32,000 nt of DNA. It comes from Candidatus Scalindua sp. (GTDB lineage: Bacteria; Planctomycetota; Brocadiia; Brocadiales; Scalinduaceae). Each line of letters opens with the position of its first letter. The stretch's first letter is position 1. The DNA is taken from assembly GCA_031316235.1 (NCBI GenBank), contig JALDRA010000001.1, forward strand, positions 3,930,001-3,962,000. The letters run 5' to 3'. This document shows, in pieces, positions 13,042 to 23,476 of the stretch. The notes beneath the pieces are model-generated. The model ran no database searches and was not told the DNA's origin. It saw only the letters and a program-made list of their open reading frames with translations. The position numbers and the translations under genes are program-made.

Positions 13042-14015
13042 ATAAATCCCTTCATTGAACTATCCTCTGTACATTGTGTTCTGCCGTGATATTCACCCTC
13101 ATACTCCCTCAGCTGCTGCACCATATATTACATGTTTAATTAGAAACGACTGTTGAATAAAAGGATAGAAAAGTTCCCTCTTTATCGAGATTTCCAGTGG
13201 CTGGACCAGAATGGATACAGATCAAGATGATAATTATTCAGTCCATGAATGACAGGGCCCTGATGTGTTGCCGGCAATCAACGTTGGAGCAGGGCAGCTA
13301 ATCAGTTACGAGAAGGCACCAATTAATACCAATACTAGCATCTTCACTGACCATTTTATAGATATAATTTAAAGAATTCAAGCGATGTAACCATTCCATC
13401 ATCAGTACAAACAACAGAAATCTCCTGTATCATATTTTATTACGTGTTCAAAACTCCCAGCGGAAACATCCAGTACCTGCTGAAGTCGAATTCTCCCAAT
13501 GCTTTTGCCGAGACTTCGAGTCATGATTATATTCTGGTATTAACTTCATCGAACTTTCCACCTCGCATTTCATTAGACCGTCAGATAGCGGGTAAACAGC
13601 TGCAAGGTGAACTTCAAAACACATTTTCCTGGTACAGTACTTTGGATTTCAATTCTCTTAATCGCAGGTAATCCTGAACTATAGAGTATTTAACCTCTCG
13701 ATTCAGGAGGGCATTGTACCATAAAAAATTTCCTGATTCAATTAAACCCAACTGTCTGACACGGTAACGTCAACTGAGAGAAGAACGTATGGTTTAAAAG
13801 GATACATGAGTGTGTTGCCAGATGTTACCGGAGAAGGTTCTGACTTCGTGGTACAAACTCAATCCTGCCAGATAAAGATAGGATTATTATCTGCATATCG
13901 TGAGGGAGGTGTAAACTTCTCAGGAAGGATTCTTTAACAAAATCGTCTAAAGAATATGATAACTATGACGAAAATACCAGCATAACATCGAGTTTTAATC
14001 AAACAATTCTTAAAA

Positions 14016-14104
14016 CCTGAAAAAGGCAAACCGCTAGAAATAGTGGGACGCAAAATCATTGGCCTAAATCCTGTATATCAGGACATGGTTGCAATGCTGC
14101 CAGG
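14016..14104 (+). promoter_or_regulatory. c-di-GMP-I (GEMM-I) riboswitch aptamer
   Basis: CCUGAAAAAGGCAAACCGCUAGAAAUAGUGGGACGCAAAAUCAUUGGCCUAAAUCCUGUAUAUCAGGACAUGGUUGCAAUGCUGCCAGG. The blocks GGCAAACC, a GAAA tetraloop on the 6-bp stem CCGCUA/UAGUGG, UGGGACGCAAA and GGCCUAAA...CAUGG (tetraloop-receptor-like) are collinear with the V. cholerae Vc2 aptamer as I recall it. The apical stem is UCCUG/CAGGA and P1 is CCUG/CAGG. Confidence 0.75.
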
Positions 14105-16635: not shown

Positions 16636-19600
16636 TCAGTTGAAGGTGCGCTGATAGAATTTAAAGTTTGATCCCGGTGCCTTCTCCGCATAAAACATCA
16701 CTACGTTCCCGTTATAGAGGAGGAGCTTCGGCTGCCCAAAATGAGTCTGGTCCACATTGGTATATGTAGCATTCGATACGTGCATCCTGCTGGTCCATGT
16801 GTTGGCTGATTTATTATAGTACCAGTATGATGCCAGGTACTCTTCAGGGTCTTGCATATTTCCAAAGGGGTGGTTCGCGGAAGTCATCCAGACATCCCCA
16901 TTGGGTGCTACCAGTATGTCGGTGTTCGCTTCCCAATATTCGTACAGCTGCCAGACTTTCTGCAGCACATTCGGCTGCGTACTCTTGAAGTACCCGACTC
17001 CTTTGGGAGTCGGCGCCGCTTCAAAGATGGCCAGGTGAAGGGCTGAGTCACTGCCGATTGCACCTGACATGGCAAAGTCACCAACATATACATTGGGAAA
17101 AATGTCTTGAGCTGGGTTCCAGGTACCGTCTTTGCTCCTGATACGACGTTCAATTGCATTATTACTGTTAGAACTCGCATAACTTACATATAAAAAATGG
17201 GCATCCCCTTGCGAACTTATCTCTATCGTTCCGTTACCCGCCCCGAGGCTGCCGAAACCTGCCTTCCAGGACACGGGTGCTTCAAAGTTTGCCTGACCTG
17301 CGATCTTTCTTCGGTACAGAATACGGCTCTCCGCTTTCCAATCTGTATTTTGCCAATCGGTAGGGTATGACCACACAATCACATGAACGTTATCATTGCC
17401 GTCCACGGCTACCGCTGGCCCTGTGTCCTGGAAATTTGCGGTATCGTTTACCAGCACAGGGGTACTCCATGTCCCACTGGAATTTGAACGATACCAGCTG
17501 GCTGAACCGTTACTGGTCGAATAGACCAGATGCAATTTGTTAGCACTGTCAACCGCAAGGGAAAACTTTTTGTTTGTATTCAGGTGGCTGGCAAGCTGCG
17601 GGCTGCTCCACGTTGTTCCTCCATTGGTGGATTTGGAAAGATATAGTTTGTTATCCTGATTATAGACAAAATAAAGAGCAGTGGTAGTCGCCACAGCCTG
17701 AAAGGCAACATTATTGCTTACCTGGATGCTCCCGACCTGCATGATGCCGCTGGTGCCCGTATTGACAGTAACAGTCACCGTTGCCACATTAGAGGTAGCT
17801 CCCAGATTGTCATTCACCGTATAGGTAAAGGAGTCCTGTCCGGTAAATCCCGTGGCAGGTGTATAATCAACGGTACCATCAGCTTTTAGTGCCGCCGTGC
17901 CATTGGCTGGTGCCGATATTACGGCCACCGTGGCAGGGTCAATCGTACCGTCTGAATCGGTATCATTTGCTGTTACATTAATATTTACCAGGGTATCCAC
18001 TGTCGTTGCTGCAGTGTCGTTATTGGCAACAGGCGCCTGATTGCCGCCTCCCTGAGTCTGATACGTATAGTCTGTAAAGGTCCAGGCTTCAGTACCGATC
18101 TTCCACCATAATCTAACATACACCGTGTTCCCGTTTATGGGGATTCCAGTTACCTGTTGCGTTGTATTTGTCCCAGTTGTTGCGCCAAATATGTCCCCCC
18201 ATGGTGGTGTGCTTACTGATGTAAAGCTTGTACCTACTCCCAGCCAGTAGGAGGTAACACCGGCACCCGCGCTCCATTGAAAGGGAACCGTTGATACCGT
18301 TAAGGTCGAACCCGGTGCCGGACTTGTCATCGCAGGCGTACCTCCCGGATTGACTGTAACCGTCACGGTTGCCACGTTGGAGGTAGCTCCCAGATTGTCA
18401 TTCACTGTATAGGTAAAGGAGTCTTGTCCGGTAAATCCCGTGGCAGGTGTATAATCAACGGTACCGTCAGCTTTTAGTGCTGCCGTGCCATTGGCTGGCG
18501 CACTTATTACAGCGACAGTGGCAGGGTTAATCGTGCCGTCTGAATCGGTATCATTTGCTGTCACGTTAATATTTACCAGGGTATCCACTGTCGTTGCTGC
18601 AGTGTCGTTATTGGCTACAGGAGATAAATTCCCAGCATTGACCGTAACCGTCACGGTTGCCACGTTGGAGGTTGTCCCCAGATTGTCATTCACCGTATAG
18701 GTAAAGGAGTCCTGTCCGGTAAATCCCGTGGCAGGTGTATAATCAACGGTACCATCAGCTTTTAGTGCTGCCGTGCCATTGGCTGGTGCCGATATTATGG
18801 CCACCGTGGCAGGGTCAATCGTACCGTCTGAATCGGTATCATTTGCTGTTACATTAATATTTACCAGGGTATCCACTGTCGTTGTTGCAGTGTCGTTATT
18901 GGCAACAGGCGCCTGATTACCGCCTCCCTGAGTCTGATACGTATAGTCTGTAAAGGTCCAGACTTCAGTGCCGATCTTCCACCATAATCTAACATACACC
19001 GTGTTCCCGTTTATGGGGATTCCGGTTACCTGTTGCGTTGTATTTGTCCCAGTTGTTGCGCCAAATATGTCCCCCCATGGTGGTGTGCTTACTGATGTAA
19101 AGCTTGTACCTACTCCCAGCCAGTAGGAGGTAACACCGGCACCCGTGCTCCATTGAAAGGGAACCGTTGATACCGTTAAGGTCGAACCCGGTGCCGGACT
19201 TGTCATCGCAGGCGTACCTCCCGGATTGACCGTAACCGTCACGGTTGCCACGTTGGAGGTAGCTCCCAGATTGTCATTCACCGTATAGGTAAAGGAGTCC
19301 TGTCCGGTAAATCCCGTGGCAGGTGTATAATCAACGGTACCGTCAGCTTTTAGTGCTGCCGCGCCATTGGCTGGTGCACTTATTACAGCGACAGTGGCAG
19401 GGTAAATCGTGCCGTCTGAATCGGTATCATTTGCTGTCACGTTAATATTTACCAGGGTATCCACTGTCGTTGCTGCAGTGTCGTTATTGGCAACAGGCGC
19501 CTGATTGCCGCCTCCCTGTGTCTGGTACGTATAGTCGCTATAAGTCCACGCTCCAGTACCGATCTTCCACCATAATCTAACATACACCGGATTCCCGTTT

Positions 19601-21648
19601 ATGGGAATTCCGGTTACCTGTTGCGTTGTTCTTTTCAGTGTTGACGCGCCATATATGTCTCCATATGGTGGAGTATTTACTGATGTAAAGCTTGTACCTG
19701 CTCCCAGCCAATATACGCTAACTCCGGTACCAGTGCTCCATTGAAAGGTAACTGTTGATGTCGTTAAGGTTGAACCGGGTACTGGACTTGTCATCACAGG
19801 CGTACCTCCCGGGTTGACAGTTATCGTTACCGTTGACACGTTAGAGCTTGTTCCGCAGGCATCCGCAACCGTATAGGTAAAGCTATCCTGACCTGAAAAT
19901 CCTGTGACAGGTGTATAATCGACGGTCCCATCGGCCCTGGACACTGCCGTACCATTGCCGGGTACATCTGCAACCGTTACCGTGGCAGGGTTAATCGTAC
20001 CATCTATATCGTAATCATTGGCAATCACATTAATAGTAACAAGGGTGCCTTTCTGTGTCGCTGCGGAATCTACAATGGCTGCTGGAGGCGTGTTGGGCGG
20101 TGCATTCATAATGACGCTATTCATCACATCAAAAATATTTGTATTATCAAGATAGGCACCGCGGTATGTGTCAGTTTCCGTTGCATAGGTCGCAAACAGT
20201 CCTGCGCCAACACCACGTACAAAAAGTGGCACCAGACTGTTTGAATGATCACCCCTATTCCATACCCAGTATACTGTTTCTCCTGTATCAATACTGTTGT
20301 TACTATTGGAGTCTTTCCAGCTTGCACGGAGTCCCCCTGTGCCGGCAACAATCTTTTCCAATGCAAGTGTGGTGTCGCTGATATCAGGAAATCGGCCGAG
20401 AGGGTCATTCTGATCGTAACGCGGATCTGAAGTGTCCGTTATAAAATTACGGCTGGGAGTGAGATAGCCGGTTTCATGGTCGCTTGTGACAATAACCAGT
20501 GTGTTGTTCCAGCTGCTATCATTCGTTTCATCTTCCACCCAGTCAATGACAGCCTGTACCGCTGCATCAAAATCTCTCTTTTCTCCTATCATATCATCCA
20601 TCATATTAGCATGTGCTGCCCAATCAACAGCCCCTCCCTCAATCATAAGAACAAAACCGTTTGAATTACGACCCAGGACGGTCAAGGCAGCATTGGTGCT
20701 ATCTACAAGTGTCGGATTTTCGAGGTTCGGGTTGGTTGTAACGGTTCCGGCAAAGCCGGAATCGTCGGCAGTGTGATAGATATGATCAAACAACCCTGCC
20801 AGTCTGGTTACTCCGGGATTATTGGCTGCGGCTGACAAGGCATCGCCGCCATCTACTCCCGTTGTACGCTCCACGAGGGTATAACTGTTATCATTTATCA
20901 GCTTATCCCTGATAGCAGAATTAACGTATCCACTTCTTCTGTCTCCGATGAGAACATCAACCGTTGGAAGTGTTGACCCATGCCCGCCCACATACAACGG
21001 GTCCAGAGGTGGCGTACAGGTAGTACAGGTAGAATTCGGGTTTCCGAAAAGTCCTTCATCCGCAATAGCATAGCCATTACCACGATCGTTATTGTGAGAT
21101 GTCCAGGCACCGGGTGTTGCGTGTGAAACAGGCACAGTGGTAATAGCGCCAACTGCCATATTCAATGTTTTTGCTATCTCTCCAATACTCAATAAACGGT
21201 CAGCATCATCCGCTGTGACACTGATATTCTTTTTTGCTGTCTTTGTACCAGAGTAAAGCGCGCTTGCTGCCGCAGCACTGTCAGTTATATTCTTGGCACT
21301 GTCTGATATCACGTAACTGAAACTGTTCCAGCAGCTTGTTGTGTTATAACTACCTCCGGAATGGAAAGTTGAGACAAAGTAATTCAGCCATTCAGGAGCA
21401 GACTGGTAATAGGGGGTAACACCCGTATATTTATTCGTGGCTTCATTATGTTTTATCCCGTTTCCGTCTGCAATCATCAAAATGATATACTTGGCACTGG
21501 ATGAACATTGACCATATACGTTCTTATGCAATATAAAGGGGACAAAAAACATAAGAAAGAAAATCAGGAATAGATGTGAGGGGAAAGACAAAAGGTTTCT
21601 CTTCTGTTTTGTCTCTTTGTTAATGTCAACCAGGCTATGATTCGTCAT
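16636..21648 (-). CDS. Giant signal-anchored surface protein: alkaline phosphatase domain + cadherin-like/VCBS-type Ig repeats + FQW-YWLGVGTS domains + BNR/sialidase-like beta-propeller
   Basis: 1670 aa with an N-terminal anchor (LFLIFFLMFFVPFIL). PhoA-family motifs: MIADGNG, TDSAAAASALYSGTKT (D-S nucleophile), EGGAVDWAAHAN and TSDHETGY. Five ~95-aa modules follow (VNINVTANDTDSDGTI...DGTVDYTPATGFTGQDSFTYTV), interleaved with three FQW domains. The C-terminal ~365 aa carry Asp-box-like STNGGTTWS. Confidence 0.88.
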   Translation of the reverse strand: MTNHSLVDINKETKQKRNLLSFPSHLFLIFFLMFFVPFILHKNVYGQCSSSAKYIILMIADGNGIKHNEATNKYTGVTPYYQSAPEWLNYFVSTFHSGGSYNTTSCWNSFSYVISDSAKNITDSAAAASALYSGTKTAKKNISVTADDADRLLSIGEIAKTLNMAVGAITTVPVSHATPGAWTSHNNDRGNGYAIADEGLFGNPNSTCTTCTPPLDPLYVGGHGSTLPTVDVLIGDRRSGYVNSAIRDKLINDNSYTLVERTTGVDGGDALSAAANNPGVTRLAGLFDHIYHTADDSGFAGTVTTNPNLENPTLVDSTNAALTVLGRNSNGFVLMIEGGAVDWAAHANMMDDMIGEKRDFDAAVQAVIDWVEDETNDSSWNNTLVIVTSDHETGYLTPSRNFITDTSDPRYDQNDPLGRFPDISDTTLALEKIVAGTGGLRASWKDSNSNNSIDTGETVYWVWNRGDHSNSLVPLFVRGVGAGLFATYATETDTYRGAYLDNTNIFDVMNSVIMNAPPNTPPAAIVDSAATQKGTLVTINVIANDYDIDGTINPATVTVADVPGNGTAVSRADGTVDYTPVTGFSGQDSFTYTVADACGTSSNVSTVTITVNPGGTPVMTSPVPGSTLTTSTVTFQWSTGTGVSVYWLGAGTSFTSVNTPPYGDIYGASTLKRTTQQVTGIPINGNPVYVRLWWKIGTGAWTYSDYTYQTQGGGNQAPVANNDTAATTVDTLVNINVTANDTDSDGTIYPATVAVISAPANGAAALKADGTVDYTPATGFTGQDSFTYTVNDNLGATSNVATVTVTVNPGGTPAMTSPAPGSTLTVSTVPFQWSTGAGVTSYWLGVGTSFTSVSTPPWGDIFGATTGTNTTQQVTGIPINGNTVYVRLWWKIGTEVWTFTDYTYQTQGGGNQAPVANNDTATTTVDTLVNINVTANDTDSDGTIDPATVAIISAPANGTAALKADGTVDYTPATGFTGQDSFTYTVNDNLGTTSNVATVTVTVNAGNLSPVANNDTAATTVDTLVNINVTANDTDSDGTINPATVAVISAPANGTAALKADGTVDYTPATGFTGQDSFTYTVNDNLGATSNVATVTVTVNPGGTPAMTSPAPGSTLTVSTVPFQWSAGAGVTSYWLGVGTSFTSVSTPPWGDIFGATTGTNTTQQVTGIPINGNTVYVRLWWKIGTEAWTFTDYTYQTQGGGNQAPVANNDTAATTVDTLVNINVTANDTDSDGTIDPATVAVISAPANGTAALKADGTVDYTPATGFTGQDSFTYTVNDNLGATSNVATVTVTVNTGTSGIMQVGSIQVSNNVAFQAVATTTALYFVYNQDNKLYLSKSTNGGTTWSSPQLASHLNTNKKFSLAVDSANKLHLVYSTSNGSASWYRSNSSGTWSTPVLVNDTANFQDTGPAVAVDGNDNVHVIVWSYPTDWQNTDWKAESRILYRRKIAGQANFEAPVSWKAGFGSLGAGNGTIEISSQGDAHFLYVSYASSNSNNAIERRIRSKDGTWNPAQDIFPNVYVGDFAMSGAIGSDSALHLAIFEAAPTPKGVGYFKSTQPNVLQKVWQLYEYWEANTDILVAPNGDVWMTSANHPFGNMQDPEEYLASYWYYNKSANTWTSRMHVSNATYTNVDQTHFGQPKLLLYNGNVVMFYAEKAPGSNFKFYQRTFN
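17761..19490 (-). repeat. 2 x 876-bp in-frame tandem segmental duplication inside the giant gene (roughly 98% identical by eye)
   Basis: The marker CCGCCTCCCTGAGTCTGATACG occurs at 18044 and 18920 (offset 876 = 292 codons). ATTGAC(A/C)GTAAC occurs at 17761 and 18637. I counted about 11 differences in ~580 aligned bases. Older, more diverged copies extend to ~20090. Confidence 0.9.
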
Positions 21649-21704: not shown

Positions 21705-22493
21705 TTATTGCGCACCTTTAATTTCATAGATCTGTAATTGTGGATTGCAATAGAAATCATTACTGTTGATATCATCATTTAAGACCTCGATACTCAGAAC
21801 GTTTCTCCCCTTATGCATCTCTTCTTCCCAGGCGCTGATATCGAAACTCTCAACAAGTTTAGCTGAGTTTTCAATAATTTTAATCCCGTTAAGAAAAACA
21901 CGGAACGCAGAATCAGTATTCAACTTTAAAAAGATTTTCTCTATTTTATTAACATCATTGACAGCAAAATCACGTCGCACAAATAATTTCTTATAGTTGC
22001 CTTGCATGGCAGCGAGATCAGTCTTGATATTAGGATTTTCTCCGATCTTACTATATCCAAAACCGCTTTTCCCTCTTTTCCACTTACTATCATCAAAATC
22101 AATACGGTTCCAGTTGTCCGGAGGATTTTTTACACCTTCGAAGTACCTCCATTCGGTTGTAAAACCAACATCTATCACCTTTTTGCCAATGGCAAGTGTC
22201 GGAAATTCAATTCCAGGATTGATACGGTTTTTTTTAACATCGATAATTGCTAACGGTAAAGTAACAACTGGAGGATTTATAATAGTCGGAGCATCTAAGT
22301 TGACACTATCTGGTGATGATTGTTCACTCTTTAATGGTTCCGCTTGTATACTGTGTAAAGATATTCCCAAGGCACAGAGTATCAGGATAAACGTAAGGAA
22401 AAAGCTAAAATTAACTTGAAAGGGACCATTTGAACCTGTGAGGCTTCTCAATCTATTTGTTGGATTAACAACATTCATTTTTATCGACTCCAA
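21705..22493 (-). CDS. Signal-anchored protein with C-terminal galactose-binding-like (jelly-roll) domain
   Basis: 262 aa (TTG start; an alternative ATG lies at 22478). TM is FSFFLTFILILCALGISL. EWRYFEGVKNPPDNWNRIDFDDSKWKRGKSGFGYS...LFVRRDFAV...LKLNTDSAFRVFLNGIKI resembles the W.Y....P..W....FDDS.W..G...FGY module seen on many surface proteins. It ends 56 nt upstream of the giant gene, so co-transcription is likely. Confidence 0.6.
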   Translation of the reverse strand: MESIKMNVVNPTNRLRSLTGSNGPFQVNFSFFLTFILILCALGISLHSIQAEPLKSEQSSPDSVNLDAPTIINPPVVTLPLAIIDVKKNRINPGIEFPTLAIGKKVIDVGFTTEWRYFEGVKNPPDNWNRIDFDDSKWKRGKSGFGYSKIGENPNIKTDLAAMQGNYKKLFVRRDFAVNDVNKIEKIFLKLNTDSAFRVFLNGIKIIENSAKLVESFDISAWEEEMHKGRNVLSIEVLNDDINSNDFYCNPQLQIYEIKGAQ

Positions 22494-22960
22494 AAAAGTA
22501 GCGTAAAGACATTAATAGACACTGAATTAACTATGGAGCAAGAGATTTATACGGCCTTTCACTCTCATGGGAAAAAATGTTACCAAAAACAGTAGCGCAA
22601 GCTAGATGCCGAAAATAAGCAAAGACCCTATCTCACCAATATCAAGAAACTTAAGAATTCTCTTTATACTTCATACACACCTTATAAAGAACTTCCTTGC
22701 AGGAAATATTCTACAATAGTATACATGCCAGAAGCCTGATCTTTTCTACAGGTGCCTCTAACCACACTTTTCAAACCTGTAAGATATTTCATACATTCAT
22801 TAACAAGTGTTTGAACGAAAGCTACCCATCTACTGCGTTGCTGCAATAATGACGTAATCCTCACGTACTTGAGTACGATCCGGTTACAGAGTTATTTCGC
22901 GCCTTGTACCTTGGCAGTTAATAGTTCACGCACGAATTACTTACTATTCCACAGCTATGC

Positions 22961-23015
22961 AAAAAAAAAACCTTACTGCTGAAGATATTTCTATAAATCC
23001 CCCTCGGCAGTAAGG
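22961..23015 (-). terminator. Intrinsic terminator (expression platform of riboswitch 2)
   Basis: Minus-strand RNA CCUUACUGC (23015-23007) pairs with GCAGUAAGG (22979-22971), followed by U10 (22970-22961). The 5' arm overlaps the 3' strands of the aptamer helices. Confidence 0.65.
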
Positions 23016-23100
23016 CTCTCGTCTCATGCAGTTTCCTTCGACCCTTTGCTTTGCGCCACCTTATCTCTAAGGTGCTGCCGTACTTATAGATATATACTTC
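23005..23100 (-). promoter_or_regulatory. c-di-GMP-I-like (GEMM-I) riboswitch aptamer, second and more divergent copy
   Basis: Minus strand: GAAGUAUAUAUCUAUAAGUACGGCAGCACCUUAGAGAUAAGGUGGCGCAAAGCAAAGGGUCGAAGGAAACUGCAUGAGACGAGAGCCUUACUGCCG. GGCA, then a 7-bp stem CACCUUA/UAAGGUG with GNRA loop GAGA, then GCGCAAAGC is collinear with copy 1. P1 is CGGCAG/CUGCCG and the P3 candidate is AGGGUC/GAC(GAGAG)CCU. Confidence 0.55.
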
Positions 23101-23111
23101 AGCTCTATAGC

Positions 23112-23140
23112 ATTATAGACTGGTTTTGAAAAAAAATAAA
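23112..23140 (-). promoter_or_regulatory. Candidate promoter for the riboswitch-2 transcript
   Basis: Perfect TATAAT (complement of 23112-23117) with an AT-rich, weak -35 (TTTATT) 17 nt upstream. The predicted start at ~23105 falls right at the 5' end of the outer helix. Confidence 0.4.
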
Positions 23141-23476
23141 GTAACTTACTTTCTACTAAATCAAGAGTGTCTTGTCAAGCAAATAATGGTATTTAGTCAA
23201 TGCAAAATAGAAATGAGAGGTTTTGCCAAACCCATCCACCTCAAAAGCTATTACTATACATACGTCGCTTCTTGGAGACTCAAACAATATGGTACTTGCA
23301 GTCCAATACGGTATGTGATAAACTTTTTTTGATCTCTGTCTCCTTCTGTTTTATCGTACAAATTTTCAAGCATTCCACAATGCAATATACAGGAGGAGGT
23401 TATCTTTATAAATACGTAAGCATAGCATTTGCCGTTCTCCCCGGCAACGCCGGGGGGGAGTAACTTGGGAATTATT

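Follow-up and report, generated by a model that had tools for sequence, protein, structure and literature searches.

An atypical terminator-coupled c-di-GMP-I riboswitch, predicted to favour read-through, ahead of a two-gene operon in Candidatus Scalindua

The Bc2 riboswitch of Bacillus thuringiensis lies in the 5' untranslated region of the collagen adhesion protein gene cap and senses cyclic di-guanosine monophosphate (c-di-GMP) with a class I aptamer; its ON logic has been shown experimentally (PMC4933901). In Bc1 of the same species the class I aptamer likewise binds the ligand, but a long expression platform masks the response (PMC11218506). The Vc2 riboswitch of Vibrio cholerae (PDB 3IRW), in which functions have been assigned to G20, A47 and C92 and to the C44-G83 pair (PMC4744006), is reported as an OFF switch in a preprint (bioRxiv 10.1101/617340). 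Here we describe an element on the minus strand, at 23003-23089, of a 32,000-nt stretch (the window) of the genome of Candidatus Scalindua sp. (GenBank assembly GCA_031316235.1). Judged from its sequence, this element is a real c-di-GMP-I riboswitch of a terminator-coupled subfamily found in anaerobic ammonium-oxidizing (anammox) bacteria, and an atypical copy of it. Like Bc2, it combines a class I aptamer with an intrinsic terminator, would use the ligand-bound aptamer as antiterminator in an ON switch, and precedes a gene for a surface-type protein; it differs in that the Bc2 terminator adjoins its reading frame whereas 482 nt and a mobile repeat intervene here, in that the default is strong repression in Bc2 and, by prediction, read-through here, and in belonging to another phylum, Planctomycetota, and to an anammox organism.

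The covariance model RF01051 (c-di-GMP-I, GEMM-I) matches the minus strand from 23089 to 23003 over its full length (positions 1-87) with 42.3 bits against a gathering score of 35 bits (E = 3.2e-5 in the window, 1e-6 genome-wide). This match, a check that an earlier sequence-only reading of this DNA had itself proposed, bears out the class assignment made there. Every column that is invariant in an alignment of 32 family members (A1, from which the variable distal part of helix P3 was removed) is kept in this copy, including the equivalents of Vc2 G20, C44, A47, G83, C92 and, by a putative mapping onto the alignment, A18. The ligand-contact equivalents are G at 23079 (G20), A at 23052 (A47) and CC at 23007-23006 (C92/C93), corresponding to invariant columns 17, 44, 74 and 75, and the interhelical C44-G83 pair is retained as C at model position 35 and G at 74 (columns 41 and 65, both invariant). 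The P2 hairpin CACCUUA-GAGA-UAAGGUG, with the GNRA-type loop that the earlier reading had recognized, occupies 23074-23057; its stem is 6-7 bp long, it has the G-C and C-G junction pairs, all of its model pairs are canonical, and two of them are altered on both sides relative to the family (A-U for C-G and U-A for G-C). A GNRA tetraloop on P2 is thus shared with Vc2; the GAAA tetraloop and 11-nt receptor of Vc2 are replaced by a GAGA loop and a 17-nt loop at distal P3, where three of the four model pairs are non-canonical, and P1 next to the pocket is not conserved. The base of P3 forms with C.A and G.G mismatches, the C.A at the first P3 position being found in two relatives as well. For the family as a whole, 89.3% of the alignment cells assigned to P1, the junction pairs, P2 and the base of P3 pair, as against 28-47% after shifting the partners by 1-3 columns; double-sided changes occur in 12 pairs, compared with 4.4 +/- 1.2 in shuffled alignments (0 of 500 shuffles reach 12), and compensatory changes occur in all six P2 pairs of A1, two of them contributed by the 23003-23089 copy.

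Since the score stands just 7 bits over the threshold, an ordinary terminator hairpin with a fortuitous covariance-model match might be considered; given the genome-wide E of 1e-6, and the shared invariant columns, compensatory P2 changes and identical terminator arm that tie this copy to dozens of homologues, we give that explanation practically no weight. It is also very improbable that the aptamer senses a different cyclic dinucleotide, as members of the GEMM-Ib class specific for 3'3'-cyclic GMP-AMP (3'3'-cGAMP) or of the c-di-GMP-I-GGC variant may. The core substitutions are unusual, and in E-value mode RF03167 (c-di-GMP-I-GGC) is listed as the best clan member; its 37.8 bits fall far under the gathering score of 59, however, and the distinguishing position is A both in this copy and in a Brocadia homologue, the sequence reading CGCAAA as in c-di-GMP-I and not CGCGAA, so we rejected the GGC identity. 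The 3'3'-cGAMP riboswitches of Geobacter, reportedly described by Kellenberger et al. and Nelson et al. in 2015, are said to share with the present family the GEMM-I fold, terminator platforms working as ON switches, and a high copy number per genome, upstream of genes for extracellular or surface proteins. They reportedly carry A at position 20, which selectivity for cGAMP is said to require. The equivalent position is G in 32 of 32 aligned members, including G at 23079, which argues against a GEMM-Ib assignment and predicts c-di-GMP as the ligand.

The arrangement of aptamer and terminator points to an ON switch. The terminator (minus strand, 23016-22961) has a 9-bp stem in which CCUUACUGC (23015-23007) pairs with GCAGUAAGG (22979-22971), followed by a U10 tract at 22970-22961. 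The 3' strand of the aptamer, GCCUUACUGC, serves as the terminator 5' arm, so that aptamer and terminator exclude each other. Folding of 23105-22955 gives the terminator as the minimum-free-energy structure (-47.6 kcal/mol, z = -4.3; none of 200 shuffles matches it); a simple terminator scan did not detect it, because its loop is 27 nt long. In the subfamily the terminator 5' arm consists of the 3' strands of P3 and P1 (AGCCUUACUGCC-GAAGAUG), so the aptamer itself would be the antiterminator and ligand binding would permit read-through. This ON-type layout, proposed by the earlier reading, is common to the 31 aligned relatives and recurs in two Brocadia genomes upstream of homologous cassettes; for the 23003-23089 copy we consider the architecture well supported by its sequence. 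Aligned with those of 26 relatives, the terminator is conserved: the outer 10-bp stem is invariant and the inner stem is kept through G-C/G-U swaps and a few double changes.

The subfamily to which this copy belongs is greatly expanded. Of the 14 RF01051 matches in the source genome, 13 lie above threshold, and they follow two designs. The first (three copies) has a GAAA loop, a receptor and a CCUG/CAGG P1, and is followed by a Shine-Dalgarno region; the second (about nine copies, including 23003-23089) ends in AGCCUUACUGCCGA(A/G) and continues into a hairpin with the 3' arm (G)CAGUAAGG(C) and a U-tract. Both designs coexist in the window, where a second riboswitch, at 14015-14104, is of the Shine-Dalgarno type. 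At 22971-23016 the 23003-23089 element matches the subfamily pattern exactly, with the AGCCUUACUGCC strand as 5' arm, GCAGUAAGG as 3' arm, the U-tract and the invariant core; it departs from the other members in having a GAGA rather than a GYRA loop and GGCAGC rather than GGCAAA. The pattern GCCTTACTRCC-N15-45-CAGTAAGG has 2 copies in the source genome. The same aptamer-terminator pattern occurs 9-10 times in each of two genomes of the same genus and 8-46 times per genome in Brocadia (at least 20 times in 13 of 16 genomes), and at least once in 50 of the 91 genomes of the order, while a reversed-pattern control gave no matches. Among the 80 records listed from a scan of 185,579 species genomes, the titles were confined to Candidatus Brocadia, Jettenia, Kuenenia, Scalindua, Brocadiaceae, and unclassified Planctomycetota or Planctomycetia metagenome-assembled genomes (MAGs). 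At E <= 0.001, three ~4-Mb Brocadia genomes yield 56, 44 and 45 RF01051 matches, and the two genomes of the same genus as the source yield 32 and 13; across the order the aptamer is joined to a near-identical terminator module (AGCCUUACUGCCGAAGAUGUUU..AUCUUUGCAGUAAGGCUUUU; e.g. loci L085-L114 and L136-L215). The source genome also encodes a hydrazine synthase alpha-type protein (PF18582, 82.9 bits), which, together with the relatives of its phosphatase gene given below, marks the host as a Scalindua-type anammox planctomycete. A literature search found no paper describing c-di-GMP riboswitches of anammox bacteria.

Other copies in the source genome precede secreted proteases (a reprolysin-like metalloprotease and a subtilase/proprotein-convertase protein) and a sigma-54 activator. 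One terminator-coupled copy (C1:314097-314194, 64 bits) stands ahead of a response-regulator/GGDEF/EAL protein, which suggests feedback of c-di-GMP on its own turnover enzymes. Two identical degenerate copies outside the window (C1:819247-819353 and C1:2663628-2663734, 37.1 bits) share their 5' flank with the intact copy at C1:3242356, carry a mutated P3 3' strand (AGUUUUUCUGCC) and have no terminator; behind one of them lies a 92-aa fragment whose sequence is identical to a stretch of the sigma-54 activator that follows the riboswitch at C1:3262635. These two look like chimeric segmental duplications.

The 23003-23089 copy, an ordinary member of a known and very common class in other respects, stands apart in the balance between its alternative structures. 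As the earlier reading had noticed, its 5' leader can pair inside the terminator loop: CUGAAG with CUUCAG, AUAU with AUAU and UCUAUAA with UUAUAGA make a 17-bp helix, through which the opening ~22 nt of the predicted transcript engage the terminator at its apical part and at the first two bases of its 3' arm. The duplex energy is -21.0 kcal/mol, compared with -7.0 +/- 2.4 kcal/mol for 2000 shuffles of the loop segment, none of which is as good. Among the 32 aligned sequences this copy alone has C, G and C at columns 16, 21 and 22, and these bases form Watson-Crick pairs with the invariant G76, C71 and G39, respectively. At 136 nt, when the terminator stem is complete, the best fold that contains the terminator has -38.9 kcal/mol and the leader-helix fold -44.8 kcal/mol. 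In the ligand-free comparison of terminator with non-terminator folds, the terminator is disfavoured by 8.0 kcal/mol in this copy, whereas the same calculation favours it in 31 of 31 relatives (-3.5 to -11.4 kcal/mol, mean -7.6, standard deviation 1.9); with 10-30 nt of additional upstream sequence the relatives give -2.8 to -11.6 and this copy +4.0 to +8.0 kcal/mol. We attribute the preference for the non-terminator fold to the loss of the top P1 pairs, the unique substitutions and the 17-bp leader-loop helix. The modelled default of this copy has thus clearly moved towards read-through, and the extra base-pairing may hold the switch on most of the time.

Several observations weigh against ligand-dependent control by this copy. 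The three unique substitutions each lengthen a competing or neighbouring helix: those at columns 16 (A-to-C) and 21 (A-to-G) extend the junction helix from 4 to 6 bp (GGCA/UGCC to CGGCAG/CUGCCG), and the third adds one pair to P2. The earlier reading had CGGCAG/CUGCCG closing the aptamer; the complementarity is there, but the helix pairs pocket nucleotides, the neighbours of G20 and C92, with each other and therefore competes with the ligand-competent pocket. The top pairs of the family P1 (CG/CG, columns 10-76 and 11-75) have become U.G and A.C, and in place of P1 there is a long helix, offset by an internal loop. To these come the two P3 mismatches, the missing tetraloop receptor, and a score of 42.3 bits that is the lowest among the intact terminator-coupled copies of the genome with the same arm sequence (good copies reach 53-64 bits); the reversed fold energies, the closest orthologous cassettes in the same genus, which do without a riboswitch, and the long spacer, which could hold a promoter of its own, both taken up below, point the same way. 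With the balance of folds reversed relative to its relatives, the c-di-GMP dependence of this copy is uncertain, and while the ON-type layout proposed earlier stands, the further step from ligand binding to read-through is not secure, since the ligand-free non-terminator fold is some 6-8 kcal/mol more stable.

These features fit a once-working riboswitch that has become independent of c-di-GMP, the leader-loop helix and the zipped CGGCAG/CUGCCG serving as a constitutive antiterminator; the operon would then be transcribed irrespective of the signal. That a genuine aptamer can have little effect on regulation has a precedent in Bc1, which has two tandem terminators and stays OFF, whereas the present copy has one terminator, predicted to be out-competed, and would stay ON. 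The ligand-contact positions and the interhelical pair are nevertheless all intact, the P2 changes are compensatory, and a perfect terminator stem with U10 would not be expected if termination had ceased to matter. Moreover, nearest-neighbour calculations take no account of tertiary structure, ligand energy or kinetics during transcription; the long-range helix could be preceded by the local apical hairpin of the terminator, which could zip down if the aptamer is unliganded. Weighing both sides, we regard such a locked-on state as possible but on the unlikely side, and ligand-dependent switching as having slightly better than an even chance.

In the mechanism that we propose for a ligand-dependent switch, transcription would start near 23105 and the aptamer (23089-23003) would be the first to fold. 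Bound c-di-GMP would keep it shut, aided by the 17-bp helix that the 5' leader makes with the terminator's apical part; while it is held shut, RNA polymerase would read through, crossing the 482-nt leader with its MITE-like (miniature inverted-repeat transposable element) insertion into the two-gene operon. Otherwise the full terminator hairpin would form and transcription would end at 22961-22970. By analogy with Bc2, expression would be higher at high c-di-GMP; for this copy our expectation is a high basal level of expression, with a kinetically determined response that is modest at most. The predicted start falls at ~23104-23106. The TATAAT on the minus strand that the earlier reading took as its -10 element is present; as a hexamer it is not significant by itself (39 copies in the window against 26 expected), and a search of the relatives for a conserved promoter at a fixed distance gave no consistent signal.

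Table 1. Features of the riboswitch-operon locus (window coordinates).
Feature	Coordinates	Strand	Basis or remark
Weak -35, TTTATT (3/6)	23135-23140	-	read directly
Candidate -10, TATAAT	23112-23117	-	read directly; promoter predicted from position alone
5' leader strand of the long helix, GCUGAAG-U-AUAU-A-UCUAUAAGU; pairs with 22978-22998	23082-23103	-	duplex energy and shuffles
c-di-GMP-I (GEMM-I) aptamer	23003-23089	-	RF01051 score and invariant columns of the 32-sequence alignment A1
Terminator 5' arm GCCUUACUGC; also P3 3' strand and pocket C	23007-23016	-	
Terminator apical part (AUUUAUAGAAAUAUCUUCAGC); also partner of the 5' leader	22978-22998	-	
Terminator 3' arm GCAGUAAGG (22979-22971) and U10 tract (22970-22961)	22961-22979	-	arm conserved in 26 aligned relatives
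MITE-like dispersed repeat, ~127 bp	22806-22932	-	inserted 28 nt after the U-tract
Remaining unique leader, 327 nt	22479-22805	-	no family match, no unusual structure
First gene, 257 aa from ATG 22478 (262 aa from TTG 22493)	21705-22478	-	N-terminal hydrophobic segment, C-terminal jelly-roll
Second gene, 1670 aa: alkaline phosphatase domain, Big_9/cadherin-like tandem repeats, weak BNR match	16636-21648	-	

The distance between riboswitch and operon bears on whether the two are coupled at all. The earlier reading had given as a caveat the 467 nt that separate the U-tract from the start codon TTG 22493; that distance is correct (for the better start, ATG 22478, with a GGAG 9 nt before it at 22488-22491, it is 482 nt), and it is partly explained by the insertion of the MITE-like repeat. 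The consensus terminal inverted repeat of this family is GTGGTTGAACGAAAAC, the left one being degenerate in the present copy; the repeat has ~95 BLAST matches in the source genome, split equally between the strands, is frequent in two genomes of the same genus (G001 and G002), and was not found in the other relatives searched. The riboswitch could therefore be an orphan: with the operon promoter in or beyond this spacer, its transcript would mostly end at the terminator and have no role in the operon, or would function just as a short RNA. The spacer is about ten times longer than the 35-45 nt of the Brocadia homologues, the mobile repeat lies close behind the U-tract, and a G002 homologue has a leader of ~500 nt that lacks a riboswitch and contains a copy of this repeat family (L017 2648-2750). 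On the other side, a simple scan of the minus strand from 22479 to 22960 found no sigma-70-like promoter and no terminator, the spacer holds no notable open reading frame (ORF), and riboswitch and operon are on the same strand with nothing between them; we consider decoupling improbable. The spacer offered only short, unsupported ORFs, and we rejected a leader peptide or small ORF there. Folding of the unique 327-nt leader was unremarkable (z = 0.21), and a search of 22300-23300 for other RNA families found nothing credible.

A regulatory link between this type of riboswitch and the downstream genes is supported by its recurrence: in two Brocadia genomes (L019 and L020) the aptamer-terminator module lies directly ahead of a homologous cassette, with 35-45 nt from U-tract to ATG. 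The cassette itself, a small jelly-roll protein followed by a giant phosphatase-repeat protein, is conserved in Scalinduaceae and Brocadiaceae with several copies per genome, and the small signal-anchored jelly-roll gene is always just upstream of the phosphatase-repeat gene, in the window and at L016-L027. The module is not present at every such cassette. No c-di-GMP family match was found, even at E <= 0.5, at the two G002 cassettes, which are the closest orthologues (phosphatase domain 77-78% identical), at those of G001 and G039, or at the paralogous cassette of the source genome; BLASTN of the leader against G002, G001, G039 and the paralogous cassettes returned only MITE and coding similarity, and a metagenome scan with the P2-core pattern gave 9 unrelated coding sequences and no orthologous riboswitch.

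The first gene product has, as read by eye, a hydrophobic, signal-anchor-like N-terminal segment. Searches of the 262-aa protein against Pfam, NCBIfam and PDB sequences gave no match, and its N-terminal part has none in 60 relatives. The conserved C-terminal 162 residues gave an AlphaFold model with a pLDDT of 86, whose top Foldseek matches are sugar-binding jelly-rolls from the N-terminus of glycoside hydrolase family 2 (E ~3e-7, TM ~0.6), so that the model makes the protein a probable lectin-like module, one lacking a catalytic domain. The earlier reading had named an adhesin as the target; the supposed adhesin is an alkaline phosphatase fused to Big_9/cadherin-like repeats and preceded by the lectin-like small protein. 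The closest named relatives of the 1670-aa phosphatase gene are in Candidatus Scalindua sp. SCAELEC01 and in a Scalinduaceae MAG. What looks like a recent broken duplicate of its N-terminal alkaline phosphatase domain is present about 165 kb upstream of the window, at C1:3785946-3787486, as four adjacent fragments of 77-99% identity that occupy different reading frames, one of them with a TAG stop.

Anammox bacteria grow as aggregates, and c-di-GMP is thought to govern aggregation and the making of extracellular matrix. The 23003-23089 element adds a giant phosphatase-cadherin-like surface protein and its lectin-like partner to what is a very large riboswitch regulon in these organisms. Set against its subfamily, this copy combines lost P1 top pairs and a unique 17-bp leader helix with a reversed thermodynamic default and a long leader, and because its alternative structures are balanced opposite to those of 31 relatives, it is a simple natural test case of how basal level and dynamic range in a transcriptional riboswitch are set by expression-platform energetics. 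A more tentative view is that the element is in conversion to a constitutive antiterminator, the leader helix and the two pocket-zipping substitutions flipping an ON switch to permanently ON with core and terminator still intact; if true, this would illustrate, in nature, how a lineage can withdraw one set of genes from a large c-di-GMP regulon while leaving the RNA in place.

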